From IMG/VR virus record IMGVR_UViG_3300043694_000018, positions 15,318-79,317 of that record: DNA of 64,000 bases. The stretch is one strand, 5' to 3'. The stretch comes from a virus (Duplodnaviria > Caudoviricetes). Below the pieces are notes generated by a model. The model had not been told where the DNA came from. It saw nothing but the letters and a program-made list of their open reading frames with translations, and did not search any database. Positions 2,467-51,109 of this stretch are shown in pieces; positions within the stretch are counted from its first letter, which is position 1, and every line of letters begins with the position of its first letter. The translations under genes and the position numbers were made by a program.

Positions 2467-4637
2467 TCGAGCGCGTGATGCTCAACAACAAGATGGGCAC
2501 CGTGGTCTACCTCAACGCCGCGATGCTGCCGACCGACAAGGACAAGGCGAAGGCCATCAAGGTCCACTTCGATGACGGCACGATCACCTTCGCCACGCTC
2601 CAGCCAGACACCGTGCCGACGCCGAAGCGCTGGGTGAACCCGAACACGCCGTCGCCCTATGGCATGAGCGGGCGGCTCGACTGGGACGAGTCACAGCACC
2701 CGCGCGGCCAGCCAGCGAACAAGGGCCAGTTCGTCACTCGGGGCGGCGCGGCGATGGGCATGACCATCGGCAAGGCGGGCGAGGGACTGTACACGGCGCA
2801 GATCGACGGCAAGTACGCAGGGCACGCCCAGCTTGCCAGCGAGGGCCATCCGTTCGTGTCGGCGCTGCACGTGCCCGAGGAGCACAGCGGCAAGGGCGTC
2901 GGCCACGCGCTGTACGATCACATCGAGAAGCAGACGGGCAAGTCGATGGTGCCCAATCCGCTGCATCTCACCGAGCAGCACGCGGAGATTTGGAAGAAGC
3001 GGCTGAGTGATATGGGCGCGGCCGAGGCCAAGCGGCGGCTCACCGAGGCGCGCACCATCGGCTACAAGAACTTCGGCCAGAAGTACACGACGACGGACAA
3101 GCTGCACATGCCGCTGCGGGAGGTCGCGGGCAAGGCGCAGCATCCGGGCGAGGGTTACAGCGAGAACGCCTTCGTGGACGGCAAGGGCCGCATCCACACC
3201 AACAACATCTACGACGCCACGCGCGCGCTGTACGAGAAGCGCGATGTCGTGCTGGCGCAGCCGCGCGAGGTGTCGACGCTGCTCGATCACCTCCAGAAGG
3301 TCTCGGCCGAGTTCATCCGGCTGGGCAGCAAGGCTCCGGTGTTCGACCTGTGCAAGGTCAGCGTCGAGGGCACCAACCTGTTCTGCGTCGGCTCGATGGG
3401 CATCCCGCGCGTGAAGATGCCGCAACTCGACAAGGAGATGACCAAGAAGTTCCTGCACTTCCTGCAAGCCAAGGGCTACGAGGTCACGGACGAGGAGGAG
3501 TTCGCCAGCTACCTGCGCGCGACGCAGAACGAACTGAACGGGGCCAAGGTGGCGGGCATCGCCAACGCGATGCTGACCGGCAAGTTCGAGGAGGGCCGCA
3601 ACCCGCGACTGGTGATCAGCCGCGACAACTACATCCTCGACGGGCATCACCGCTGGGCAGCGCTGGTCGGCGTCGATGCGCTGAACAACCAGTTCGGCGA
3701 CAAGCTCATGAAGGTGAGCCGGGTCGGCATCGGCATCACCGACCTGTTGCGCGAGGCTGAGGAGTTCGGCGTGCCGACCGGCGAGGGCGTCGAGGTGATG
3801 TCGAAGGAGGAGGCGGCGCAGTCGGGCGGCAAGGCGACTGGCACGCCCAAGACCGGAGCACCAGCGACGAAGCAGCCCGACAAGCACGGCTACGAGTTCG
3901 TGTCGCCCAACGTCAAGGACCTCAAGTTCAAGGACGCCGTGGCGTCGCTCGAAGGCGACCGGCACAAGTACATCACCGCGCTCAGCGAGCAGGTCGACAA
4001 GGAACTGGGGCTGAAGGGCACGACCAAGCCGGTGCTCGGCGTCTGGACCGATGGCGCGGAGAACTCGACCATGACGACCTACACCAACCCGACGTGGCAG
4101 CAACTGGTGGCGTCGGCCTCGATGAAGGGGCATCTGGCGAACCAGAAGCAGGTCCTGATCTTCAACGAGGGCGACATCGATGCTGGCCACGGCGACGAGG
4201 GCTTCCTCGCGTCGTTCCCGGTGAAAGGCGACATGAAGGAGGTGTCGGACTGGCTGGGCCAGAACGGGCTGATCTACCACACGCTTGAACCGACGAAAGA
4301 CGGCGCTATCGTCCACGTCTACGGCAGCGATGACGCCACCATGCAGGCCGTGAAGGCCGCAGGAGACCACTATGGCACGACCGTCCAAGCCGGTGTCGGA
4401 CGAGGAGCCTTCCTCGGCAGCTTCAAAGAAGGAGCCGACGACGAGCAGCGCGCAGACGCCCGCGCCGTCTATGAGCGAGAGATTGAAGGCGCTGGGCTTC
4501 AAGGTGCGTCGGCCGTCTGGAAAGGGCTACGTGATCGGTACGGGTGGGCCAACAAAGCAGCCACCGGAAGCCAAGCAGTAGCACGTGCTGACGCACGCCC
4601 TAGAAACAGGGCATTGCAGTTTGCGGTATCCCCATGA
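2463..4637 (+). CDS. Head-associated polyvalent protein (GNAT-like + ParB/Srx-like + unknown C-terminal domain)
   Basis: ATG overlaps the previous stop. WDESQHPR..GQF motif; HSGKGVGHALY (GNAT motif A); ATQNEL..LVISRDNYILDGHHRWAA (ParB/Srx). Confidence 0.7.
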   Translation: MIERVMLNNKMGTVVYLNAAMLPTDKDKAKAIKVHFDDGTITFATLQPDTVPTPKRWVNPNTPSPYGMSGRLDWDESQHPRGQPANKGQFVTRGGAAMGMTIGKAGEGLYTAQIDGKYAGHAQLASEGHPFVSALHVPEEHSGKGVGHALYDHIEKQTGKSMVPNPLHLTEQHAEIWKKRLSDMGAAEAKRRLTEARTIGYKNFGQKYTTTDKLHMPLREVAGKAQHPGEGYSENAFVDGKGRIHTNNIYDATRALYEKRDVVLAQPREVSTLLDHLQKVSAEFIRLGSKAPVFDLCKVSVEGTNLFCVGSMGIPRVKMPQLDKEMTKKFLHFLQAKGYEVTDEEEFASYLRATQNELNGAKVAGIANAMLTGKFEEGRNPRLVISRDNYILDGHHRWAALVGVDALNNQFGDKLMKVSRVGIGITDLLREAEEFGVPTGEGVEVMSKEEAAQSGGKATGTPKTGAPATKQPDKHGYEFVSPNVKDLKFKDAVASLEGDRHKYITALSEQVDKELGLKGTTKPVLGVWTDGAENSTMTTYTNPTWQQLVASASMKGHLANQKQVLIFNEGDIDAGHGDEGFLASFPVKGDMKEVSDWLGQNGLIYHTLEPTKDGAIVHVYGSDDATMQAVKAAGDHYGTTVQAGVGRGAFLGSFKEGADDEQRADARAVYEREIEGAGLQGASAVWKGLRDRYGWANKAATGSQAVARADARPRNRALQFAVSP

Positions 4638-6598
4638 TCCGCGCCGCCGGGGTGCTGATCCTGAGCGCGGACGGTCGCGTGCTGTTCCTCAAGCGCTCGA
4701 AGTCGGGGGACATGCCGGGCAAGTGGTGCTTCCCCGGCGGCAAGATCGAGGACGACGAGACGCCCGAAGAAGCTGCCATCCGCGAACTGGACGAGGAAGC
4801 AGGCGTCAGTGCCAAGCCAGAGCACCTGACGTTCTGGACGCGCCGGGTCGCGGCTGACGCAGGCCCGGAGGAGGTCGACTTCACCACGTTCATCGTGCGC
4901 AACGTGGTCGAGTTCGAGCCGTACCTCGATCAGGAGCACACCGCCTACCTGTGGGCTGAGCCGAACCGCGCCCCGCGCCCGCTCCACCCCGGTTGCCAGA
5001 TCAGCGTCGACCGGCTGGACATGGACGAGCTTGACGTGGCGCGCGCGATCAAGGACGGCGACCTTCACGGCCCACAGCAGTACGAGAACATCTGGCTGTT
5101 CCCGATGCGCATCACCGGGACCGGCATGGCCTTCCGCCACAAGTGGGAGGAGTACGTCTGGCGCGATCCCGCGCTCTATCTCAATGACAATTTCTTGCAG
5201 CGTTGCAATGGCCTGCCCGTCATCCTCGAACACCCATCAACGTCGGTGCTGACCACCGACGAGTTCAAGGACCGCACAGTCGGCACGGTCATGCTGCCCT
5301 ACATTAAGGGCGACGAGGTCTGGGGCATCACGAAAATCTACGACGCGGACGCCGCGCACATCCTGCTCACGGAGCAGTTGAGCACGTCACCGGCCGTGGT
5401 GTGGCGTGACCCGGACGTGAACGCTGAGAAGGAGATGGAGAACGGCCAGACATACCTGATCGAGGGAAAGCCCAGCCTCCTCGATCACCTTGCGATTTGT
5501 AAGCAGGGCGTCTGGGACAAAGGCGGGAAACCCGAAGGTATAGACCTAGGAGGTCTGATCATGCCAGAGAACAGCAAGATCGCCGCCGACGACACCAGCA
5601 AGGGCGGCAGTGGAATCGAGCGCCTGCTCAAGGGGCTCGATGCGATGGCGTTGAAGCTCGACAGCTTCACGTCGCGCATGGACTCGGTCGAGGCGCAGGT
5701 CGCGAAGGTCCTCAAGTCCCGCAAGGACGACGATGATCGCGCCGACGCAGGTCCGCCGGGCGACGGCAAGCCTGTGCCGCCGATGCCGGGTCCGGGCGCA
5801 CCGCCGGGCGACGGCAAGCCCGCGCCCGTGGCAGCCGACAAGCGCAAGGACGCGGACGGCAAGCCGTTCCCCGGTGCCGCGCCGCCGATCCAAGGCAAGG
5901 GTCCGCCGTCACCGCCGCCTGCCGCCAAGGCCGACGAGGGCGATGGCGACGACAAGGACAAGAAGGACGACCTGCCGCCGTTCATGAAGAAGGCGGACGA
6001 CGAGAAGGAGCCCAACGAGGACCCGACCGCGCAGGGTCGTGGCGACGAGGGCAGCGAGAAGACCCACTTCCCGGCCAAGCCGATCACCGGGGCCGACGCG
6101 GCCAAGCGTGACGCCGACCTCAACGCGCTCAAGAAGGAGATCGCCGAGCTTCGGCTGCGCATCCCCAAGGATCGCTCAGACGCCGACGCCGCCCAGATGG
6201 CCGAGGATCAGGCACGCTGCGACAGCGTCGCCATGCTGTTCGGCACGTCAGCGCCGCGCCCGCTCGCGGGCGAGACCCGGCCAGCGTACCGGCTGCGCAT
6301 CTTGGAGCCGTTCAAGAAGCACAGCCCGCAGTGGCAGAATGTCGACGTTCAGGTCGTCGCCGTCGATGAGGCCGCGCTCAACGTGGTCGAGCATCAAATC
6401 TACGAGGCGGCACGGATCGCCGCTCGTGATCCCGCCAGCGTCCCGGTCGGCACGCTGCGGGCCGTCACCATGCGCACGCCCACAGGCCACATCGAGACGA
6501 AGTTCATGGGGTCGCCGAGCGCGTGGCTCAATCGTCATGCGGGCAACTCGCGGGCCTTCGTGACGGCGCTCAACCTCAAGTCGCCGACTGCAAACTGA
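4634..6598 (+). CDS. NUDIX hydrolase fused to DUF2213-like prohead protease/scaffold
   Basis: Intact NUDIX box GKIEDDETPEEAAIRELDEEAGV; GLPVILEHP..LDHLAIC..GVWD protease core; low-complexity P/D/K scaffold region; directly upstream of capsid genes. Confidence 0.8.
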   Translation: MIRAAGVLILSADGRVLFLKRSKSGDMPGKWCFPGGKIEDDETPEEAAIRELDEEAGVSAKPEHLTFWTRRVAADAGPEEVDFTTFIVRNVVEFEPYLDQEHTAYLWAEPNRAPRPLHPGCQISVDRLDMDELDVARAIKDGDLHGPQQYENIWLFPMRITGTGMAFRHKWEEYVWRDPALYLNDNFLQRCNGLPVILEHPSTSVLTTDEFKDRTVGTVMLPYIKGDEVWGITKIYDADAAHILLTEQLSTSPAVVWRDPDVNAEKEMENGQTYLIEGKPSLLDHLAICKQGVWDKGGKPEGIDLGGLIMPENSKIAADDTSKGGSGIERLLKGLDAMALKLDSFTSRMDSVEAQVAKVLKSRKDDDDRADAGPPGDGKPVPPMPGPGAPPGDGKPAPVAADKRKDADGKPFPGAAPPIQGKGPPSPPPAAKADEGDGDDKDKKDDLPPFMKKADDEKEPNEDPTAQGRGDEGSEKTHFPAKPITGADAAKRDADLNALKKEIAELRLRIPKDRSDADAAQMAEDQARCDSVAMLFGTSAPRPLAGETRPAYRLRILEPFKKHSPQWQNVDVQVVAVDEAALNVVEHQIYEAARIAARDPASVPVGTLRAVTMRTPTGHIETKFMGSPSAWLNRHAGNSRAFVTALNLKSPTAN

Positions 6599-6608
6599 GA
6601 GGTCCACC

Positions 6609-7223
6609 ATGGCCATCGGCATCACTCCTCAAGTCACCAAGACGGCACTGGGCACCTTCGGTGTGCAGTGGGACGGGCTCGTGCAGGGCACCGCCATGCC
6701 GTCACCCAACGCGGTCTTCAACCTCGCTGGCGGCTGGGTCGCCAGCACCGAGACCGATCCGATGTACGGCGGGATCGCCATCACCGAAGGCATCCCGACC
6801 GCACCCGGCTCGCCACCGGCCACCCCAGCGATGGAACTGGGCGGCCCGCTCACGCGCGCGAGCGGCTATCCCAACCTCACGGGCTTCACCGTGTTCGATC
6901 AGGACTACGCGGCGATCAACTCGCCGCAGTCCGAAGTGCAGTTGGCGGACGTGTACATGCAGATGAACTTCTACCGCCTCGGCTCGGGCCAGCGCATCGT
7001 CGTGGCCTGCGATCCGGCGCTCATCACCCTGTACGGTCAGCCGATCACGCAACAGGTGTCGTGGGACTTCTCGGCCCAGCGCCTCGTGGCGTTCTCGACC
7101 ACCGCTCTCGCCTGCAAAGTCCTCAAGATGATGCCTGCGGGGTGCATGACCGTCACCTACACCAGCGGCACCAAGACCGCCGCATGGAATCGCAACGGCG
7201 CAGCCGCTGTGATCCTGATCTGA
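6609..7223 (+). CDS. Capsid decoration/cement protein
   Basis: 204 aa beta-rich protein between protease and major capsid; RBS GAGG. Confidence 0.6.
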   Translation: MAIGITPQVTKTALGTFGVQWDGLVQGTAMPSPNAVFNLAGGWVASTETDPMYGGIAITEGIPTAPGSPPATPAMELGGPLTRASGYPNLTGFTVFDQDYAAINSPQSEVQLADVYMQMNFYRLGSGQRIVVACDPALITLYGQPITQQVSWDFSAQRLVAFSTTALACKVLKMMPAGCMTVTYTSGTKTAAWNRNGAAAVILI

Positions 7224-39056: not shown

Positions 39057-39063
39057 TCAACAC

Positions 39064-39113
39064 CTTCCTTTCGACGCCCTAAGCCCGCGTCAGCTTTTCA
39101 GGGCTGAGCGGGC
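39064..39113 (-). promoter_or_regulatory. Conserved hairpin leader element, copy A
   Basis: Plus strand GCCCGC-g-TCAGC/GCTGA-GCGGGC; followed on the minus strand by TAGGGCGTCGAAAG. Confidence 0.55.
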
Positions 39114-39141
39114 CGGGTTCCTGTGGTAGATCGGGGTGGTT

Positions 39142-39176
39142 GCCGGGCGGCCAACACAGGACACAAACCGCCCGGC
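39142..39176. ncRNA. 9-bp hairpin with a 17-nt loop matching the early-gene leader motif
   Basis: GCCGGGCGG-CCAACACAGGACACAAA-CCGCCCGGC. Confidence 0.4.
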
Positions 39177-39229
39177 GTCCCCCACGCGAGAGGGAGCGGC
39201 TTCCCATCCGCTCCCTCCCTCCCAAGTTC

Positions 39230-40348
39230 TTAGGCAGCGACGGGCACCGCCTCGACATCGATCACCGGCTGGGCAGCGGCGCGGCGGCGGCGGCGCACCG
39301 GGGCCGCGTCGGCCTCCAGTACCTGCTTCCACTCGGCCTGCGGCAGTTCCAGCAACTGGCCGCCCAGCTTCTCGAAGTCGACGGCGCGGTCGTAGTCGGT
39401 GGCGTCGTGGGCCTGCGCGGTGACGGCGTTCAGCACGCCCCACTTGCTCAAGTCGCCGCCCTCGATCAGCGACCGCAGGATGCCGCCGGTCTCGGTCTCG
39501 TTGGCACCGATCTTCTGGGCCAGCACCTCGACCGCAGCCGCCGGGTTGCCGACGATCTTGGCCTCGGTCATGCCCTGCATCTTGGCGACGACCTTGCCGA
39601 ACTCGATCTCGCCGACCGCGTTCCGCACCATGTCGCGGACCTTGAGCAGGATCGCCCGGTCGTCCGCCTTCTTCGTGTCGTCGGCCCACAGGGCCTCGTT
39701 GTCTTCGATCTTGCGACCGACGTGACGAGCGCTGAAGCGCTGGTCCGGCAGGATCATGCCGTTGAGGCAGCGCAGGCGGTACACCATCGGCGTCACCGAC
39801 ACCGCGCCGAAGCCGATCTCGGAGTTCGAGATCACGACACCGGCCTGCACCACGTCGCCGACCTTGACCTCGCCCTGTACACGCGGGCTCACCGCCTGAA
39901 TGTACATGCGCCGCTCAGTCACTTCGCAGGAGACGATCTGGACTTGCGGGATGTCGAGCAGCACCGGCAGCGCGACCTCGGCGATTTCCTCGTTCTCGAT
40001 GCGCTGATACTGGTTCGACAGGAAGGCGCGGACGTTGTCCTTCAGGACGCGGACCATGCGCTTCTCGGGGTTCGCGTGGAACCACGTGTTGACGTTCTGG
40101 GCCAGAAGCTCCGGCTGGTCGGCGAGCATGCGGTCGTAGTATTTGACCGGGATGCCGAGGCGGTTGGCGATCTGGTTGTGAGCAGTCGGCCGGATGGCGA
40201 GCGGCTGCTGGCTGGGGATGACGAGCGACGTGCCCGTCTCGCTGGGCCTCATCTCGACCGACGCGGTGTCGGCGATGAAGTCCTTCTTCTGGGTCTTCAG
40301 GCCCTCGATACGCTGGGCCAACTCGGAAAGCGACAAACCTTTAAGCAT
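39230..40348 (-). CDS. DUF932-like phage/plasmid protein
   Basis: RAFLSNQYQRIEN..ISNSEIGFGAV..RLRCLNGM..RHVG. Confidence 0.75.
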   Translation of the reverse strand: MLKGLSLSELAQRIEGLKTQKKDFIADTASVEMRPSETGTSLVIPSQQPLAIRPTAHNQIANRLGIPVKYYDRMLADQPELLAQNVNTWFHANPEKRMVRVLKDNVRAFLSNQYQRIENEEIAEVALPVLLDIPQVQIVSCEVTERRMYIQAVSPRVQGEVKVGDVVQAGVVISNSEIGFGAVSVTPMVYRLRCLNGMILPDQRFSARHVGRKIEDNEALWADDTKKADDRAILLKVRDMVRNAVGEIEFGKVVAKMQGMTEAKIVGNPAAAVEVLAQKIGANETETGGILRSLIEGGDLSKWGVLNAVTAQAHDATDYDRAVDFEKLGGQLLELPQAEWKQVLEADAAPVRRRRRAAAQPVIDVEAVPVAA

Positions 40349-40402
40349 TGAAGTGGTAGTTCCTGTGTTTGCTCCGGCTGCCGGGATGGTCCCGCCGGGC
40401 AC

Positions 40403-40435
40403 CACAGAGATAGGCTCACTGAAAAAGTTTTGCAA
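40403..40435 (-). promoter_or_regulatory. Sigma70-like promoter
   Basis: TTGCAA-17-TATCTC. Confidence 0.55.
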
Positions 40436-40444
40436 GCCCCTGAT

Positions 40445-40487
40445 GCCCTTTTTTGAGGGCCTATGGATTGTGCCCTATTTTGCGGGC
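40445..40487. promoter_or_regulatory. Operator pair
   Basis: GCCCTTTTTTGAGGGC (40445) and GCCCTATTTTGCGGGC (40472). Confidence 0.7.
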
Positions 40488-40684
40488 ATGACCACATCCA
40501 GCTTGCGGGGTGCCCGCTGGGTGGCGTGGTAGGTGCAGAAGTGGCCGATCCGGGCCGGGCGCTTGCACTGGTAGGCTGGCTTGGCCGTGGTCGGCGGCAG
40601 CACAGCGGCGAGGCAGCGCGCCGGGTCGACCGGCGGCTGGTCCTCCCTCGGCGAGTACAGGCAGCGCAGCGGCAGGGTGCTCAT
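40475..40684 (-). CDS. Small Cys/His zinc-binding protein
   Basis: RC..QCKRP..HFCTYH. Confidence 0.5.
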   Translation of the reverse strand: MSTLPLRCLYSPREDQPPVDPARCLAAVLPPTTAKPAYQCKRPARIGHFCTYHATQRAPRKLDVVMPAK

Positions 40685-40872
40685 GCCGGGGCCTTCTCCT
40701 CGGGCGCGTGGCTGCGCAGCGGGAAATCGCGGGTGGTGTGGCACTTCCACGTGCTGTTCGGCTTGTGCGGGTCCGTCACCCACTTGTAGCTGTACTCGGT
40801 CACGCCGGTCTTGATCAGCGTGATCTGCGCGCCGCACTTGGCACAGGTCGCGGTCTTCGTCATCGGCATCAC
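40681..40872 (-). CDS. Small zinc-finger protein
   Basis: CAKCG..C..H. Confidence 0.5.
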   Translation of the reverse strand: MMPMTKTATCAKCGAQITLIKTGVTEYSYKWVTDPHKPNSTWKCHTTRDFPLRSHAPEEKAPA

Positions 40873-41075
40873 GGGAACTTCTCTTTCAGGTCGTCCAGCA
40901 CCGACAGGCTCACCTCGGCGAGCCCGCCCAGAACTCCGTGCATGGCGTTCGCCAAGTCGCGGGCCTCACCCGGCTTCAGCGGCTTGTCGTCGCTGTTGTA
41001 GAGCCGGGTCATGACGCGGCGCAGCTTGGCGACCTCCATGCCGTCGATCACGAAGTCCTTGTCCTCGTCGCTCAT
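40869..41075 (-). CDS. Hypothetical protein
   Basis: Coupled ORF. Confidence 0.55.
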   Translation of the reverse strand: MSDEDKDFVIDGMEVAKLRRVMTRLYNSDDKPLKPGEARDLANAMHGVLGGLAEVSLSVLDDLKEKFP

Positions 41076-41491
41076 GCCAGCACCGCGCCCTGTTCGAGGT
41101 CGTAGTTCTCCAGCAACCGCCGGGCGGCGTCGATCTGGTCGGGCCGCATCTCCTCGGCAGCGCGCCGGTCGTTGGCGACCCAGCGCACGAAGCCCAGCAC
41201 GTGCCCGGCAAGATCGGGCGACTGGACGCGCCAGTGCTTGAGGTCGTAGCGGCCCACGTACTCCAGCCCATCGGCGAACACGACCTTGAAGTCGTGCTTG
41301 TCGTACCCGCCGCCGGTCGGCGCGGTGCGGCTGTTCGTGCGCAGCGTGTTGTTGGCGTCAGTCCAGCCCCGGCAGACCTGCACGATGCCGCACTCGCTGG
41401 CGAGGCCTTCGACGCGCGTGATCTCGATGCGCACCGGGCGGATAAGCTCGCGGTACACCTTGCCGTCCACGCCCTGATAGGTCGCGCTCAT
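41072..41491 (-). CDS. Hypothetical protein
   Basis: MSATYQG..; GGGYDKHDF motif. Confidence 0.55.
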   Translation of the reverse strand: MSATYQGVDGKVYRELIRPVRIEITRVEGLASECGIVQVCRGWTDANNTLRTNSRTAPTGGGYDKHDFKVVFADGLEYVGRYDLKHWRVQSPDLAGHVLGFVRWVANDRRAAEEMRPDQIDAARRLLENYDLEQGAVLA

Positions 41492-41667
41492 GCGGCCCCC
41501 TTGGCGAAGCGGTACTCGCGCTCGGCCCACTGGTCGAGCTTGCTGAGCTTGTCCTTGTACTCGGACTCGCTCAGCTTGCCCGCCATGTACTGGGCGTCGA
41601 TGGCGTCAGTGGTGCGCTCGACGGCGCGCTCGATCTGGTCCTCGGTCATGATGGTGTTCGTTCTCAT
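41488..41667 (-). CDS. Hypothetical 59-aa protein, probably leaderless
   Basis: Not in the ORF track: MRTNTIMTEDQIERAVERTTDAIDAQYMAGKLSESEYKDKLSKLDQWAEREYRFAKGAA. Confidence 0.6.
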   Translation of the reverse strand: MRTNTIMTEDQIERAVERTTDAIDAQYMAGKLSESEYKDKLSKLDQWAEREYRFAKGAA

Positions 41668-41702
41668 GCCCTCAATTTAGGGCGCGTCGTCGTTGCTTTC
41701 AA
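41668..41702 (-). promoter_or_regulatory. Promoter with operator around -10, start codon directly after
   Basis: TTGAAA-17-TAAATT-GAGGGC-ATG. Confidence 0.75.
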
Positions 41703-41919
41703 TGGGGAAGACGCGCTGGCCCGGACGATATTCGCGCACGTCGAGGATCGGGTCGTGGTCGTACAGGCGCAGCGACAGGCGCGACAGCCAGAGCAGCACC
41801 CAGTACAGGCCGTCGACCACGATCTGGCTGAGGCTGAAGACCAGCACCATCAGCAGGAACAGCGGCACGATGAGCGCCAGTATCAGGGCGAACGACGCCG
41901 CAGCGCGCAGGGCGTTCAT
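41677..41919 (-). CDS. Small membrane protein
   Basis: Long hydrophobic segment. Confidence 0.5.
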   Translation of the reverse strand: MNALRAAASFALILALIVPLFLLMVLVFSLSQIVVDGLYWVLLWLSRLSLRLYDHDPILDVREYRPGQRVFPIESNDDAP

Positions 41920-42245
41920 TCGGCCGCCACCTTGGCCGCCAGCGGCACCGGCACCGGGTCAGGCTCGATCACCGGCAGCGGCGCGACCGTGACGACCGGC
42001 TTGGCCGCGCGCTTCTGCGGCTTCACCGTGTAGTTCTGCAACAGGCGCTTGACGGTATCCACCACCATCATCTCGACCAGAAACAGCACCTCCTGTCGTG
42101 GCAGGTTGGCGTCGGCGACGACGACCCGGACGTGCTGGACGTGCGGGTCGGCGCTGACGACCGGGGCGGACCAGATGACTGGCCCGCCGGGCGGGACCAC
42201 TGAGCCGTTGCAGCAGTTGATCTCGATCTCGCAGACGTACTTCAT
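41916..42245 (-). CDS. Hypothetical protein
   Basis: MKYVCEIEINCC.. Confidence 0.45.
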   Translation of the reverse strand: MKYVCEIEINCCNGSVVPPGGPVIWSAPVVSADPHVQHVRVVVADANLPRQEVLFLVEMMVVDTVKRLLQNYTVKPQKRAAKPVVTVAPLPVIEPDPVPVPLAAKVAAE

Positions 42246-42490
42246 GCGTTGTTGCTTGAGCCTCCACCGTTTGAACGCTTGCGCGCGAGCACCCTGCTCC
42301 GCGCCCGGACGCAGGGCGCGCACATGCAGGAGTCGAGCGTCTTGTAGAAGATCGAGGCTGCATGCCACGCCGGGCACTCCTCGCGCAGGGCGATGGCGGC
42401 GATCTGGCCCACGTCATCCGGGCGCTTGACCCGGATGGAGGCTCGCACGATGCCTTCCCACTGCTGGATTGTGAACCTATGGCGTCCCAC
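42242..42490 (-). CDS. Hypothetical Cys-containing protein
   Basis: GTG start after GGGGAG; CMCAPC. Confidence 0.35.
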   Translation of the reverse strand: MGRHRFTIQQWEGIVRASIRVKRPDDVGQIAAIALREECPAWHAASIFYKTLDSCMCAPCVRARSRVLARKRSNGGGSSNNA

Positions 42491-42607
42491 TACACTCTCC
42501 CCATGTCCCCTTTGTAGGGCATGCAATCTGCGATTGACAAGGATGGAATTGTCCGACTGCGGCGCTCAGGTATTACCCCCAAAGCGCTCTTGCCTAACCT
42601 TTCGGGA

Positions 42608-42793
42608 TCATGACGACAGCGCGCTCCCCTCGCGGACGTTGCCCTCGATCAGGACCTCGGTGGTGTTCTTCATCACCAGCGCAGTGCCGTGCAGGTCGAT
42701 CTTGCTGCCCGGCAACCAGACGACCAGTTGATGGTCGTCCAGCGCCGGGTCGAGCTTCATCAGTTCGTCGCGCACTTGCTTGACGGTCGCCAT
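42608..42793 (-). CDS. Hypothetical protein
   Basis: RBS GGAGGTG. Confidence 0.55.
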   Translation of the reverse strand: MATVKQVRDELMKLDPALDDHQLVVWLPGSKIDLHGTALVMKNTTEVLIEGNVREGSALSS

Positions 42794-42794
42794 C

Positions 42795-43445
42795 TCACAC
42801 CTCCCCCGGATCGGCGTTGATCGCCGCGTCGCGCAGTTCCTCCAGCGCGGCCTCGTAGTCCGACTCGGCCTGTTCCTTGGCGTCGGCCTGTTCGGTCAGG
42901 TACTGCTCCCACGCGGTGGTCGCCCAGTCCTGAACGGCGTCGAGGTAGTCCTCGACCGTCGCGAGGTCGAGCCGTTCGGGCTCCGGCATCGAGTAGTTGT
43001 CGAGGAAGTCCTCGAAGCTCTGCTCCTCCGGCTCCTCCAGTTCGGGCTGGTCGAGGCCTTCGATCTCGTCGGCCCACGTCTCGCAGTTCTGGATGCGCTC
43101 CTGAAGCATCTCGCCGGTCGCGCCCTGTTGCAGGCCCTCCGGCATGTTGTCGAGGCTGCCTTGGCACTCCTCACCCAGCGACCTGATCTCGCCCGCGATC
43201 TCCACGAGCGCGTCATACAGGCCGTCATCGAGGCTGAGGTCGCCCATCTGTTCGCTGAAGCTACGCCACTGGCTCTTGAAGCTCGACCGCGTCAACTGGC
43301 TGGGACGCGGGTACGCCTTGCTGACGACCTTGGTCCCCGGCCCGCGCTGGTTCTTGAACGTCCACCAGTAGTACGTGTCACCCACCGCGATCCCGGCATG
43401 CGGGATCGCCTTGCGGGCGCGCTCGACCTTATTGACGCGCGGCAT
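42795..43445 (-). CDS. Acidic hypothetical protein
   Basis: 216 aa, typical codon bias. Confidence 0.65.
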   Translation of the reverse strand: MPRVNKVERARKAIPHAGIAVGDTYYWWTFKNQRGPGTKVVSKAYPRPSQLTRSSFKSQWRSFSEQMGDLSLDDGLYDALVEIAGEIRSLGEECQGSLDNMPEGLQQGATGEMLQERIQNCETWADEIEGLDQPELEEPEEQSFEDFLDNYSMPEPERLDLATVEDYLDAVQDWATTAWEQYLTEQADAKEQAESDYEAALEELRDAAINADPGEV

Positions 43446-43755
43446 CGGAAGCCTCCTTGGCCTTGCGCGCGGCTTCGTCGCGGTCCCGCTCGCGCAGCAT
43501 GTGATGCTGCACCAGCGTCGCGATCCGCTCCTCGTCGGCGAACAGGTCCTTCAGCGCGCCGTAGGCACCGCTCAGGTTCGCCACCTTGCAGGCGGCATAC
43601 AGCAGGTCGTTCGCGGCGTCCTTGTCACCGGCCGCGAAGCTCATGTCGATGAACACCGTGTTCGGCTTGTCCTCGGCGGTGTTCGCCCCAACCCGCAGGT
43701 TGGTGATGCTGCCGACAATCGTGCTGACGGTCGGCGGGTCCTTCCTTCTTGCCAT
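43429..43755 (-). CDS. Hypothetical early protein
   Basis: ACACAGGAG leader. Confidence 0.6.
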   Translation of the reverse strand: MARRKDPPTVSTIVGSITNLRVGANTAEDKPNTVFIDMSFAAGDKDAANDLLYAACKVANLSGAYGALKDLFADEERIATLVQHHMLRERDRDEAARKAKEASDAARQ

Positions 43756-43777
43756 GTCACTCTCCTGTGTTGTTGTG

Positions 43778-43797
43778 ACGCCCTAAATTTAGGGCGT
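43778..43797. promoter_or_regulatory. Perfect 20-bp palindromic operator over a -10 box
   Basis: ACGCCCTAAATTTAGGGCGT; minus strand TTGAAA-17-TAAATT. Confidence 0.85.
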
Positions 43798-44049
43798 GGC
43801 CTTCCCGTTTTCAAGGGCCGCCGCACGCTCGGCCTTGCTCGGATAGATCACGCGCTGGCGGCGGAACACGCGCTTCTGCGGCTCCGGCTCAGGCGTGCTC
43901 GGCCCATAGGGCGCGACGCCCGGCGGCAGGTTGTGGTTGATGATGGCGAGGTTGGCCGCCTCGACGGCGGCCTCGGCGAGCTTCAGCGCATCGTGCGCCC
44001 GGCGCAGGCAGGCGTAGGCCTTCACCAGCAGGTCGTGCCGTTCACTCAC
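43789..44049 (-). CDS. Hypothetical protein
   Basis: Coupled ORF. Confidence 0.45.
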   Translation of the reverse strand: MSERHDLLVKAYACLRRAHDALKLAEAAVEAANLAIINHNLPPGVAPYGPSTPEPEPQKRVFRRQRVIYPSKAERAAALENGKATP

Positions 44050-44239
44050 GCGGCACCTTGCTTTCGAGCACGATGACGCGCTTGATCCGGTCGTGCCAGA
44101 TGCGGAACGACTCGGTCGGCCGGTTCGGCACTTCGAGCACGATCTCGCAGTCGCTGTGGCGATAGGGCTCGGCCAGCCGGGCGGTGGTGTCGCCGCCGTT
44201 GGTCGTGAGCACGCGCACGAGGATGCCCTTGGGGATCAT
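44042..44239 (-). CDS. Hypothetical protein
   Basis: 65 aa, RBS GGAGG. Confidence 0.5.
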   Translation of the reverse strand: MIPKGILVRVLTTNGGDTTARLAEPYRHSDCEIVLEVPNRPTESFRIWHDRIKRVIVLESKVPRE

Positions 44240-44242
44240 GGT

Positions 44243-44527
44243 TCAGGCCTCCAGCGTCCGGGTGAGGTTCAGCCGCGCCGCCATCGGCACCCGGTCGAGG
44301 GTGTCGTTGGCGTTGACGATCATCGCCATGCTGTACGAGCCGTAGGGCTTGAACTGCTCGACGCCGTTGTAGACCGAGAGGCGGCGCACGACGCGCTTGC
44401 CGTGGACCTCGGTGGTGATGGTCTTCGCGGTGCGCGCCTCGATGCGGAAGAAGCTCCACAACTGGCTATCGCCCGTGAAGTTGTCGGCGTAGGTGGTGCC
44501 GACCTGAAAGCGCTTGATGTCGTTCAC
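44243..44527 (-). CDS. Hypothetical early protein
   Basis: GTG start after ACACAGGAG. Confidence 0.6.
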   Translation of the reverse strand: MNDIKRFQVGTTYADNFTGDSQLWSFFRIEARTAKTITTEVHGKRVVRRLSVYNGVEQFKPYGSYSMAMIVNANDTLDRVPMAARLNLTRTLEA

Positions 44528-44540
44528 GATGATCTCCTGT

Positions 44541-44566
44541 GTCACGCCCTAAATAGAGGGCGTGAC
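44541..44566. promoter_or_regulatory. Operator with 10-bp inverted arms
   Basis: GTCACGCCCT-AAATAG-AGGGCGTGAC. Confidence 0.8.
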
Positions 44567-44583
44567 GTTCGGGGTTCAAGGGT

Positions 44584-44769
44584 TCAGCGGCGGGTCTTCG
44601 CGGCCTTCTTGGCGGCGGCCAGAAAGTCGTCGCCGACCTTCAGGACGCTCACCCGGTGAAGCCGCGCGATCATGCGTAGCCGCACAGACGAGGTTTCGAT
44701 GACGCCCTTGGGCGAGGTGCGCTTGGCTTCCTCGACCAGCCGGGCAATCGCCTCTCGGTACTTGCTCAT
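44584..44769 (-). CDS. Small basic protein
   Basis: RBS GGAGGTGG. Confidence 0.5.
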   Translation of the reverse strand: MSKYREAIARLVEEAKRTSPKGVIETSSVRLRMIARLHRVSVLKVGDDFLAAAKKAAKTRR

Positions 44770-45173
44770 CGCACCACCTCCACCACTTCTCGCTCGGCGA
44801 GGTAGCGGTACTTGCCGTCAGCAAACTCGACGCGGGCGCGCATGTAGCGCGTGCCGCCAACGCTAGTCCGGCGCGTCCACTCGATGGCCGCGACCTCGCG
44901 GGCACCGTCGCCGCCGATCACCAGCCAGTCGCCGACCTTCACGGCCTCGGCCTCGATGTTCTCGAAGCGGCCGAGGTCGCCCTCGGCCATCTGCGGCACC
45001 GCGCGGGCCTTGGCCAGTTCGGCGCGGAGGTCCCACGCTCGGTCGAGCAGCTTGCGGCTGACGCTCGCGGCGTCGTAGGCATCCGACTCCAAGCCGTACT
45101 GGCTGAGGAGCTTGGCGGCCTCCTTGCACCGCGCGGAGGCGGTGAACAGAATCTCTACTTGTGTGTCAGTCAT
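44766..45173 (-). CDS. Hypothetical early protein
   Basis: Leader CCAACACAGGAC. Confidence 0.6.
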   Translation of the reverse strand: MTDTQVEILFTASARCKEAAKLLSQYGLESDAYDAASVSRKLLDRAWDLRAELAKARAVPQMAEGDLGRFENIEAEAVKVGDWLVIGGDGAREVAAIEWTRRTSVGGTRYMRARVEFADGKYRYLAEREVVEVVR

Positions 45174-45179
45174 GATGGT

Positions 45180-45237
45180 CCTGTGTTGGTTCTCTCGACT
45201 CCCCGACCCCGCTCACGGGTCCTAACCGTGGCGGGGT
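45180..45237 (-). promoter_or_regulatory. Conserved hairpin leader element, copy B
   Basis: ACCCCGC-t-CACGG/CCGTG-GCGGGGT plus a 24-bp block identical to 45841-45864. Confidence 0.65.
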
Positions 45238-45320
45238 TCTGGGGTGATGCCGGGGCTCGACCCGGCGGCTGCATTTCCTAGGCCGTCCCCGACACTCCGG
45301 GGTGCTTCGCCCTCCCCACC

Positions 45321-45349
45321 AAGATGGGGATGCTGAAAGATTTTTGCAA
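45321..45349 (-). promoter_or_regulatory. Sigma70-like promoter
   Basis: TTGCAA-17-CATCTT. Confidence 0.5.
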
Positions 45350-45352
45350 GCC

Positions 45353-45832
45353 CTAAAAAGAGGACATCAAAACCTCGTACTTTTCGCTCAGCCCGCGCAC
45401 GAGATCGGCAGCCTCAGAGAAGGTATCGGCCGGGACGCGCAGGGTCTCGACCGGGTGCTGCCCGGCATCTGGGCCGCTCATCAGCGTCGCGTTGCCGTTG
45501 ACGTATTGCACCGTCCAGAGCGTCTGGACCTTGGCCTTTGGGTTGGCCACGACCACGTCGAGCGGCTTGCGGTTGAAGCTATCGTCCAACAGCGTCGCCC
45601 GCTCGTACTCGTAGACCTTCGAGCCGGGGAACGTGTCGAACACGATGCGCCCGGTGGTCCGGCCCTCGGCGACCAGCCTGCGGCTGGCGTGGCAGCCAGT
45701 CTTGAACTCCATGCGGGAGTTGTGCTTGCGCTCGCCCCAGCTTGGCTTGTAGGCGTACTTCGCCACGTTGGCCTCGCGGCCGTCCGTGAGCTTCACGCGC
45801 TCGGCCGTCACTCGATAGACATACGCACCCAT
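45353..45832 (-). CDS. Hypothetical early protein
   Basis: ACACAGGAG leader; AKYAYKP motif. Confidence 0.6.
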   Translation of the reverse strand: MGAYVYRVTAERVKLTDGREANVAKYAYKPSWGERKHNSRMEFKTGCHASRRLVAEGRTTGRIVFDTFPGSKVYEYERATLLDDSFNRKPLDVVVANPKAKVQTLWTVQYVNGNATLMSGPDAGQHPVETLRVPADTFSEAADLVRGLSEKYEVLMSSF

Positions 45833-45840
45833 TGAACTCT

Positions 45841-45899
45841 CCTGTGTTGGTTCTCTCGACTCCCTGACCCCGCGTCAGGTTCTCAGGCCTGAGCGGGGT
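45841..45899 (-). promoter_or_regulatory. Conserved hairpin leader element, copy C
   Basis: ACCCCGC-g-TCAGG/CCTGA-GCGGGGT plus the shared 24-bp block. Confidence 0.65.
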
Positions 45900-45907
45900 T
45901 GCGGGGG

Positions 45908-46870
45908 TTACATCTGATGATTGTCGCCGCTGAAGTCGTTGTAGTCCGGCTCCGGCTCGGCCGACCCGGTCGAGTAGTCGGTGCGGGCACCGTCGCCGTC
46001 TTCGCTGCGCTGGTCGTCGGCAGGCCCGATCTTGCGGGCCTGCGTCGGGCGACTGAAGAAGCCGAACTTCGGGTCATCCCGGCTCGGCTGGACCTTGGCG
46101 CTGAACTCGACGGTGTCGCCGCGCTCGACGCTCAGACCGGCGGGGACCGTGCCCCACACCTTCCAGCCGTCCTGATGGCGGACCAGCATCTTGAGCACCG
46201 AGCCCCGGAAGCCATCGACCAGCTTGGTGCTGACGACCTCGCCCCGGATGGTGATGCGCTGGTCGCTGACCGGGAGCGGCGCGGCGGCGGCCTTCTCGGC
46301 CTCGCGCTGGGCGGTGCGCTGGGCGCGGTTGCTGATGTCGCTCAGCAGCTTGCCCACGAAGTTCGCCTGCTTGTCCGAGATCGAGCCGTAGCGCACGACC
46401 TTCGAGACGATGTCAGTGATGATCGACTCCTCGCGGGGAAGCGGCGCGTCGTAGGTCGCGGTGTAGATCGTCCACGCGGTGTTCAACTGGCGGTCGGCCA
46501 GAAGCTCCTGCGCGCGGGCCTTGCCCTTGAAGGTCTTGCGGCCAGCCGCGATCCGCTTCTTGAACGAGCGGAAGGCAGTGGCGTCGCCCATGTCCATCTT
46601 CTCGGCGCAGTCCATGCCGGTCTGGATGTAGGCGTTGCTCGGGCGATGATGGAAGCGCGCCACGTACATGGCGTGCGCGCCGCACACGTGGCACGTGCCA
46701 CCGTGCTCGTGATGAGACCACGTGCCACCCGTGCGCTTCTGATGCTCGCGGAAGAACATGCGGTCGCTGAGGAACGCCATGGAGTCCACGCCGCCGCCCA
46801 GATAGTCACAACTGACGTAGTCGTACTCCTGCGGCTGGATGGTGCTCGGGCGATGAAGGTCGGTTCTCAT
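45908..46870 (-). CDS. Protein with N-terminal Cys/His cluster and C-terminal OB-fold-like domain
   Basis: TCHVCG..GMDCA; ITIRGEVVSTK..RGDTVEFSAKV..FGFFSRP. Confidence 0.65.
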   Translation of the reverse strand: MRTDLHRPSTIQPQEYDYVSCDYLGGGVDSMAFLSDRMFFREHQKRTGGTWSHHEHGGTCHVCGAHAMYVARFHHRPSNAYIQTGMDCAEKMDMGDATAFRSFKKRIAAGRKTFKGKARAQELLADRQLNTAWTIYTATYDAPLPREESIITDIVSKVVRYGSISDKQANFVGKLLSDISNRAQRTAQREAEKAAAAPLPVSDQRITIRGEVVSTKLVDGFRGSVLKMLVRHQDGWKVWGTVPAGLSVERGDTVEFSAKVQPSRDDPKFGFFSRPTQARKIGPADDQRSEDGDGARTDYSTGSAEPEPDYNDFSGDNHQM

Positions 46871-50737: not shown

Positions 50738-50842
50738 CGATGGTCTCTTGCTAGGCTGAGGGCTGCGGTTGAAAGGTCCTGTGTTCCTTGCTCCCGCGCC
50801 CGCCCCGCTGAGCCCGGCTATCACCGCGCCCGGCGGGGCGGG

Positions 50843-51109
50843 TCACGCCGGTTCGATTTCGATGGTGAGCGCGGTGAGCGGCCGGTTCGGTTGTCGGTCG
50901 GAGCGGCGCGGCCTGATCTTCGGCACCGTGCGCCAGAACTCGTACGCCGCGCCAGAGTCGGCGAACTGCATCGCCTTCTTCCGGTCGCCTGTGAACACGC
51001 CCCAGCCCTGTCCGCCGTAGGCCTCGAAGTCGAACGACTTGAGGTACTGGCCGGAGTGCGGGCAGCGCTGGCCGTTGGCGAATCCCACGGCCTTGATCAC
51101 AACGGTCAT
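50843..51109 (-). CDS. Hypothetical protein
   Basis: Coupled ORF. Confidence 0.6.
   Translation of the reverse strand: MTVVIKAVGFANGQRCPHSGQYLKSFDFEAYGGQGWGVFTGDRKKAMQFADSGAAYEFWRTVPKIRPRRSDRQPNRPLTALTIEIEPA

Follow-up and report, generated by a model that had tools for sequence, protein, structure and literature searches.

What is the hairpin that recurs ahead of small genes in the early region of an uncultured soil phage? The question is raised by positions 39,064 to 45,899 of a 64,000-nucleotide stretch of DNA (the window), which comprises bases 15318-79317 of the 79.3-kb IMG/VR virus record IMGVR_UViG_3300043694_000018. From the letters of this stretch, the original prediction described a three-copy leader RNA element with a covarying stem, possibly an uncatalogued RNA motif. 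The phage has a G+C content of 65%; its structural genes lie on the + strand, up to ~32 kb of the window, and ~55 mostly small genes occupy the - strand from ~61 kb down to 32.7 kb. The hairpins constitute a real, uncatalogued family of structured RNAs, situated between the small early genes of uncultured soil phages. The structure of this family is well supported; its mechanism we infer.

All three predicted sites were reproduced on the - strand, including their coordinates, inner stems and single-base bulges (Table 1). In the gene-sense orientation the copies, here named c1, c2 and c3, possess a CCC/GGG lower stem, an internal loop, an outer stem of 6-7 bp, a 1-nt bulge on the 3' side, a variable 5-bp inner stem and a loop of 7-8 nt. 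The outer stem takes the form (G/A)CCC(C)GC with GCGGG(G)(C/U), and 3' of the hairpin come GGGMGUCGARAG (as Y-R-GGG-M-GUCGA-R-AG), the Shine-Dalgarno (SD) sequence of the ribosome-binding site (RBS) and the start codon. Folding revealed that the lower stem extends each hairpin, a small internal loop parting it from the outer stem, and that the RBS is unpaired in the predicted folds. The downstream motif described as preceding the RBS, GGGMGTCGARAG, is found without mismatch at these three sites only in the window, and the 24 identical bases attributed to two of the copies are a 24-mer common to c2 and c3, present exactly twice in the 79-kb genome. Copy c1 is located ~115 nt 3' of a DUF932 gene and c2 within a 5' untranslated region (UTR), downstream of a promoter-like site at 45349-45321; c3 begins at the TAA stop (45910-45908) of a 338-aa gene, its lower stem opening at the next base after TAA. 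The composite pattern CCCGC..GCGGG..GGG gave nine matches against 1.1 expected, these being the three sites on both strands and a hairpin at 50.8 kb. The latter, already suspected of being a similar element, is a diverged fourth member of the family. It retains the outer stem and a bulged A, folds at -50.5 kcal/mol (z -4.0) and is weakly matched by the family model (17 bits, E 0.013); GGGAGCAAGGAACACAGGAC comes next, and its ATG (50737) is farther off than in c1-c3.

To find relatives, a covariance model was built from the three copies (R1) and used first, alongside a pattern scan of collections, and metagenome contigs proved to contain true members. Scanning again with outer stem and loop as the key added more phage genomes, and a rebuilt model (R2) was the source of the full-length matches. 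Many of the 41 metagenome/genome pattern matches were chance matches in coding DNA, set apart by model score, and the first 23-base pattern matched IMG/VR only twice, once by chance. In total, the model recognized 31 copies on 14 distinct contigs, that is, in eight phage genomes with 1-5 copies each and in shorter metagenome contigs. The description as a three-copy element is an undercount, given the diverged fourth copy and the seven other phage genomes. By model R2, the window phage has three copies and one weak copy, the L058 phage five (within the 20 kb examined), G154 and G156 four each, G155 and G158 three each, G157 two and G002 one. The shorter contigs L024/L016, L027, L029, L030 and L075 have one or two copies each, and a single copy occupies one locus present in six contigs, one of which is binned to a Stellaceae metagenome-assembled genome (MAG). 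Soil and rhizosphere metagenomes are the source of the carrier contigs. Within a genome the copies are all on one strand and within about 5 kb, and the model is usable to find hypervariable regions in metagenomic phages. Rfam 15 contained no match to the window or to the L058 phage at the gathering threshold, nor by an E-value threshold. The best sub-threshold match over c3 was to Mu-gpT-DE (16.5 bits vs 49 required), and c1 gave nothing relevant.

The case for covariation depends upon these 31 copies on 14 contigs, since three copies alone are thin evidence. Among the 31 distinct copies, 96% of pair cells hold standard pairs overall and 98.6% in the main helix, and pairing falls to 31-47% when the partner is slid by 1-3 columns. 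Changes on both sides were observed in 10 of 15 pairs, with 81 compensatory cells. No shuffle out of 500 reached the observed covariation values, and a 15-copy set was analysed likewise; as the alignment is model-fitted and many copies are within-genome paralogues, these shuffle counts overstate independence and are not probabilities. Single-sequence folds produced the same architecture for each copy (mean z -4.3), with GC-rich stems of -16 to -34 kcal/mol.

The main helix contains 11 G-U cells vs one A-C, which points to the gene-sense strand as the folded RNA, and in gene-called loci the neighbouring genes are on the same strand as the copies. In three phages, the orthologous copies that follow the DUF932 gene have kept the fold via compensatory changes, together with a loop switch from CCUGAAAA to GCAA. 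In a strain variant (L011), 97.8% identical over 1.4 kb, there are no changes in 194 non-coding nucleotides of leader and intergenic sequence vs 31 in 1227 coding nucleotides, and c3 is identical. G154-G156 have structural and replication genes in common with the window phage at 40-80% identity, and G157, G158, G002 and the L058 phage have almost no proteins in common with it. Structure, covariation, strand, position and spread across phages sharing almost no proteins are established. Among cultured phages, a near-identity search with 38-47 kb found no match and protein searches found distant relatives only, none of them close.

Table 1. Positions of the hairpin copies and related sites in the window (window coordinates).
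Feature	Position	Strand	Description
Hairpin spans of c1, c2 and c3	39113-39083, 45237-45206, 45899-45867	-	As read from the sequence
Inner stems of c1, c2 and c3			TCAGC/GCTGA, CACGG/CCGTG, TCAGG/CCTGA; 3'-side 1-nt bulge C, A, C
Start codons	GTG 39056 or 39063; ATG 45173; ATG 45832	-	18-34 nt past the stem
Copy c1	39058..39121	-	Lower stem CCC 39117-39115 with GGG 39079-39077; outer stem 39113-39108 with 39088-39083; bulge C 39089; inner stem TCAGC/GCTGA; loop CCUGAAAA; flank GGGCGUCGAAAG 39079-39068; SD GGAAGG; downstream gene GTG 39056, 79-aa signal-peptide protein
Copy c2	45174..45247	-	Outer stem ACCCCGC/GCGGGGU; bulge A; inner stem CACGG/CCGUG; loop UUAGGAC; flank GGGAGUCGAGAG, then CCAACACAGGAC (SD); ATG 45173 of 135-aa protein
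Copy c3	45835..45910	-	Outer stem ACCCCGC/GCGGGGU; bulge C; inner stem UCAGG/CCUGA; loop CCUGAGAA; flank GGGAGUCGAGAG; SD in AACACAGGAG; ATG 45832 of 159-aa protein
Diverged fourth copy	50772..50846	-	Frame CCC + GCCCCGC / GCGGGGC + GGG; 3' bulged A; longer interrupted inner stem; GAUA loop
Leader-only relative	43758..43798	-	Sigma70-like promoter TTGAAA-N17-TAAATT inside 20-bp palindrome; no hairpin
Promoter-like site upstream of c2	45321..45349	-	TTGCAA-N17-CATCTT; sequence reading, missed by consensus scan

Could the fold nevertheless be incidental, the element acting at the level of DNA only, as a recombination linker or cruciform, as a promoter formed by loop and flank, or as the half-site of a palindromic operator? 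The 3' flank AGGGCGTC is identical to the right-hand part of GCCCT-N6-AGGGC(GTC/GTG) sequences, short 'hairpins' that are palindromes and of which the genome contains 17. Several of them enclose the -10 box of - strand sigma70-like promoters, such as TTGAAA-N17-TAAATT at 43.8 and 41.7 kb, and the set looks like an operator regulon. In addition, the loops CTGAAA, TTGAGC and ATGACA resemble -35 hexamers, and copies are located at mosaic junctions. Against this, the excess of G-U over A-C cells and the fact that copies strictly follow the direction of the genes speak for a transcript. No -10-like hexamer occurs 16-18 nt past the loop, and where the loop is GCAA or CGCGU the flank persists with nothing resembling a -35 present. 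A tyrosine recombinase (PF00589) is encoded in none of five carrier genomes vs 14 of 14 control genomes, and the attC core GTTRRRY was found in only one of the 31 copies. We regard a purely DNA-level function as highly improbable. An ECF or sigma70 promoter, with the loop as -35 and the flank as -10, was rejected, because the ECF -35 AAC is not conserved, TANNNT is lacking and short-loop copies keep the flank.

The likeness between palindromes and flank extends to the leaders. Sequence directly following the palindromic -10 boxes (AGGGCGUC...) equals the hairpin 3' flank, and likewise in the L058 phage (CATATT-GAGGGTGTCGAGA); in the leader-only relative, what comes after the -10 box (TAGGGCGUC..AACACAGGAG) corresponds to the flank that lies 3' of the hairpins. 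Since promoter-proximal and hairpin-proximal leaders are alike, we propose that a cut at the hairpin base might yield the same type of 5' leader as transcription initiation; a DNA-level half-operator is an alternative reading of this likeness. Sites of the palindrome include 38573, 41668, 43780, 44546 and 47928 (+ coordinates), with an AT-rich N6 and frequent extension to CAC/GAC...GTG/GTC, and six lie within structural genes. A second promoter-like repeat, GGCTTGCAAA-N17-(C/T)ATCT(C/T)-(TG)TGGTG, has three copies on the - strand at ~40.42, 45.33 and 46.92 kb, its -10 being poor by the sigma70 consensus.

Position and stem stability bring another explanation into view. The distance from the upstream stop to the hairpin start is usually 0-20 nt (stop to outer stem, median ~18 nt), and the stem end is 18-34 nt from the start codon in 20 of 31 copies. 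A GC-rich stem of -22 to -34 kcal/mol, directly past stop codons, would fit a leaky transcription terminator or attenuator that isolates each cassette transcriptionally, as has been shown for the promoter-early stem-loop (PeSL) elements, whose stem-loops terminate transcription (PMC2839356). One outlying copy, in L075, has the same hairpin followed by UUUU, and in L081 a complete sigma70-like promoter follows a copy. However, the 10 nt past the stem contain 1-4 U within a purine-rich tail in 30 of 31 copies, and five or more T only in L075. A terminator scan called none of c1-c3, and termination at c2, in a 5' UTR ~100 nt from its own promoter, would silence the gene. With a U tract after only one of 31 copies, the element is not a canonical terminator, and a leaky one is improbable in our estimation.

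The conserved parts of the element are the loop, the bulge and, above all, the leader. The 3' flank is the most conserved (G-G in 30 of 31 copies, G-U in 30, C in 26, then (G)A-R-A-G-R-A), and forms a single-stranded leader, GG-M-GUC-GA-R-AG-RA, at a fixed distance past the hairpin. Its purine part is the SD itself in many copies (GAAAGGA, AGAGGAG), and a second SD lies 10-40 nt farther on in c2, c3 and some other copies. The loops are CCUGAGAA (n=11), CCUGAAAA (n=7), AUUGAGCC (n=3) and YUAGGAC (n=2), the rest being single variants; CCUGARAA is found in 18 of 31 copies, most loops are readable as a GNRA tetraloop closed by U-A, and 26 contain TGA or TAG. A bulged base, of any identity, occurs in 27 of 31 copies. 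Two candidate roles for the loop were rejected: a pseudoknot of loop CCUG with SD CAGG, a pairing which on reading the sequences the L058 copies do not keep, and mimicry of an anticodon loop, as the loops are mostly 8 nt.

Such conservation raises the possibility that the element binds a specific protein, either an arginine-rich N-type antiterminator, as at boxB, or a translational operator protein co-regulating the cassette genes. In lambda, early transcripts contain the boxB of the nut site, a small hairpin whose loop is of GNRA type. The element resembles it (5-bp stem, GNRA-like loop), and we have counted this likeness in favour of protein binding; the c1 loop region GCCCUGAAAAG is also similar to lambda boxB. 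Further points in favour are the conserved loops CCUGAGAA and CCUGAAAA, readable as U-A closed GNRA tetraloops (other copies having GCAA or GAUA), a bulge whose position is kept as its base varies, a sub-type with loop AUUGAGCC and an identical inner stem in three phages, and YUAGGAC in two. The difficulty is that about a third of the copies have wholly different loops, and that there are up to five copies in 6 kb, one per small gene, where nut sites occur once per operon. The GCTCTT boxA core is absent from all 31 copies (80 nt upstream, 40 nt downstream), so the element is not a lambda-type nut site and the antitermination entertained in the original prediction is not borne out in its lambda form; its bulged stem is also much longer than that of boxB, and its loops are not all GNRA. 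A Pfam scan of 20 early proteins detected only a methyltransferase and a PD-(D/E)XK nuclease and no RNA-binding or regulatory domain, no search having been aimed at an N-type arginine-rich antiterminator. No protein is common to all carrier phages, which also tells against a dedicated phage protein, and we consider this explanation unlikely.

RNase III is encoded in none of the five carrier genomes. The lack of both this enzyme and any protein common to all carriers makes a host factor more likely, and the conservation of loop, bulge and leader among phages that have hardly any proteins in common suggests a signal read by the host and travelling with accessory genes. It is conceivable, and in our judgement doubtful, that hairpin and leader together form a shared 'cassette signal' read by one dedicated factor (of the host, or a small phage protein) via the GNRA-type loop, the bulge and GGMGUC, so that the orphan-gene cassettes of the hypervariable early region would be one post-transcriptional regulon. 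If true, newly recombined genes would be plugged in automatically, in an RNA-level counterpart of integron or PeSL cassette logic.

The explanation we favour, to which we would give about an even chance, is that of an intercistronic hairpin with an SD-like leader which insulates, processes or stabilises the cistrons, probably via a host factor, and also marks cassette boundaries. On this view, early mRNAs of uncultured soil phages contain the element, on the sense strand, as a structured RNA module acting in cis, with its conserved leader serving as the SD of the next small gene or lying just upstream of that SD. As an intercistronic insulator, the hairpin may cap the 3' end of the upstream cistron against exonucleases and keep the downstream RBS unpaired. 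The internal loop or the 3' base of the stem is probably where the host factor acts, perhaps by RNase III-type processing, which would leave a standard 5' leader like that from the phage promoters. The copies would double as homology patches at cassette boundaries, in the manner of PeSLs, because ~60 nt are repeated ahead of many unrelated small open reading frames (ORFs) of the hypervariable region. In every related genome copies are found behind the DUF932 gene and in a variable small-ORF block bounded by the counterparts of the 185-aa and 216-aa genes; where positions are orthologous, conservation is limited to the upstream gene, the one downstream being unrelated. The genome G001, the closest relative via the 338-aa protein (50% identity), has no copy, database homologues of the 159-aa protein on L012 and L013 lack the element, and no relatives of this protein were found in viral contigs.

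Several points weigh against this explanation, in addition to the model-fitted alignment and the within-genome paralogues already mentioned. The helix, at 15-16 bp and interrupted, is short for a classical RNase III substrate. A pure structural barrier would need neither the conserved loop nor the bulge, which hint at specific recognition, and GGMGUC of the flank is conserved beyond the needs of an SD. Loop, bulge and GGMGUC thus keep a specific binding partner in play. At ~60 nt, the element is a short object for testing how phages insulate rapidly exchanged orphan genes and standardise their expression.

Among known systems, the early-gene RNase III hairpins of phage T7, which have an upper stem, an internal loop and a lower stem, exemplify such processing: the host enzyme acts, the upstream RNA retains the hairpin and its downstream counterpart gains a defined 5' leader. 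Here too an intercistronic hairpin occurs in a polycistronic early transcript, and an RNase III site is compatible with its predicted architecture of a 12-bp upper helix, an internal loop and a lower stem. The helix of the element is shorter (12 bp + 3 bp), and RNase III sites do not typically have a conserved apical loop such as it possesses. Repetitive extragenic palindromic (REP) sequences and attC sites share with the element imperfect palindromes with an extrahelical base, located right past ORFs, an inner structure conserved over sequence, and a link with cassettes. The element is not attC, as an integrase is lacking in the five carrier genomes and the GTTRRRY core in all but the one copy, nor is it a host-genome repeat: among 150 other sampled genomes of the class of the Stellaceae MAG carrier (32 candidates scored per genome), none has a copy.

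The PeSL cassettes of T4-type phages contain a strong sigma70 promoter, and their stem-loop is a tested terminator (PMC2839356, PMC4122927). As in these, a repeated composite of ~60-100 nt fills the gap from the stop codon, by way of stem-loop and SD, to the ATG, and is concentrated in hyperplastic regions of small orphan ORFs, at gene-replacement borders between related phages. Unlike PeSLs, the hairpin copies c1-c3 contain no promoter-like site, promoters being separate (43.8, 41.7 and 47.9 kb), the U tract is lacking, and the stem evolves by compensation, with conservation of the loop, the bulge and the 3' leader. A closer analogue of a PeSL is provided by those promoters of the window phage whose -10 is wrapped in a palindrome. 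The start-associated sequence (SAS) and extended SAS (ESAS) of Cluster K mycobacteriophages (PMC3203893, PMC12699233) likewise lie in the non-structural half of the genome, in one orientation and directly upstream of the start codons of a subset of genes, and pair an inverted repeat of variable spacer with a conserved start-associated motif. Departures in the ESAS arms (17-bp inverted repeats) do not support RNA pairing, and DNA-binding sites were favoured (PMC3203893). The arms of the present element covary, and its host lineage is different. The 13-bp SAS GGGATAGGAGCCC at the start codon is absent, the single 2-mismatch match in the window (1.5 expected) being on the other strand and unrelated. 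The element is not an ESAS, since the SAS is absent and ESAS arms lack covariation by their authors' account. Clear RNA-level covariation sets it apart from both ESAS and the promoter-terminator PeSLs. Few repeated regulatory cassettes are known from the early regions of phages, and the element joins them as a structured RNA family with good support.

A number of further features were noted around the hairpins. Ten - strand sites, spread from 38.5 to 56.8 kb, have AACACAGGA in common as an extended RBS context; at one mismatch or fewer there are 20 matches vs 7.8 expected, the exact ones almost all on the - strand ahead of start codons. Just upstream of c1, at 39142-39176 (-), is a 9-bp hairpin (GCCGGGCGG/CCGCCCGGC) with a 17-nt loop (39151-39167), 12 bases of which (GUCCUGUGUUGG) complement the c2 leader CCAACACAGGAC exactly and match the c3 leader at 11 of 12; they span the AACACAGGA core. 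As a candidate anti-RBS RNA, this hairpin could act either in cis or in trans. A strong hairpin without a U tract (GGGAGGGAGCGG ... CCGCUCCCUC; 39181-39222, -) lies directly past the DUF932 stop, and with the preceding hairpin and c1 makes a 175-nt non-coding stretch of three stable hairpins.

In the L058 phage, a gene for a TROVE (Ro60-like) protein (4153-5553, -) is bordered by a ~1-kb non-coding stretch (5553-6620) which has one tRNA-Ser call, several tRNA-like arms and no Rfam match. Adjacency to DUF932 genes is recurrent (window 39230-40435, -; L058 14039-15163; L015; L029), three phages having the element downstream of the gene and two other contigs, from mobile elements, having it upstream. 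The upstream variant, at 477-546 of L015 and at the same locus in L021, L022, L036, L040 and L044, has a flank, GUCGAGAGC, which pairs with a downstream GCUCUCGAC as a second 9-bp hairpin, and in this variant the second UCGAAAGGAC is the SD.

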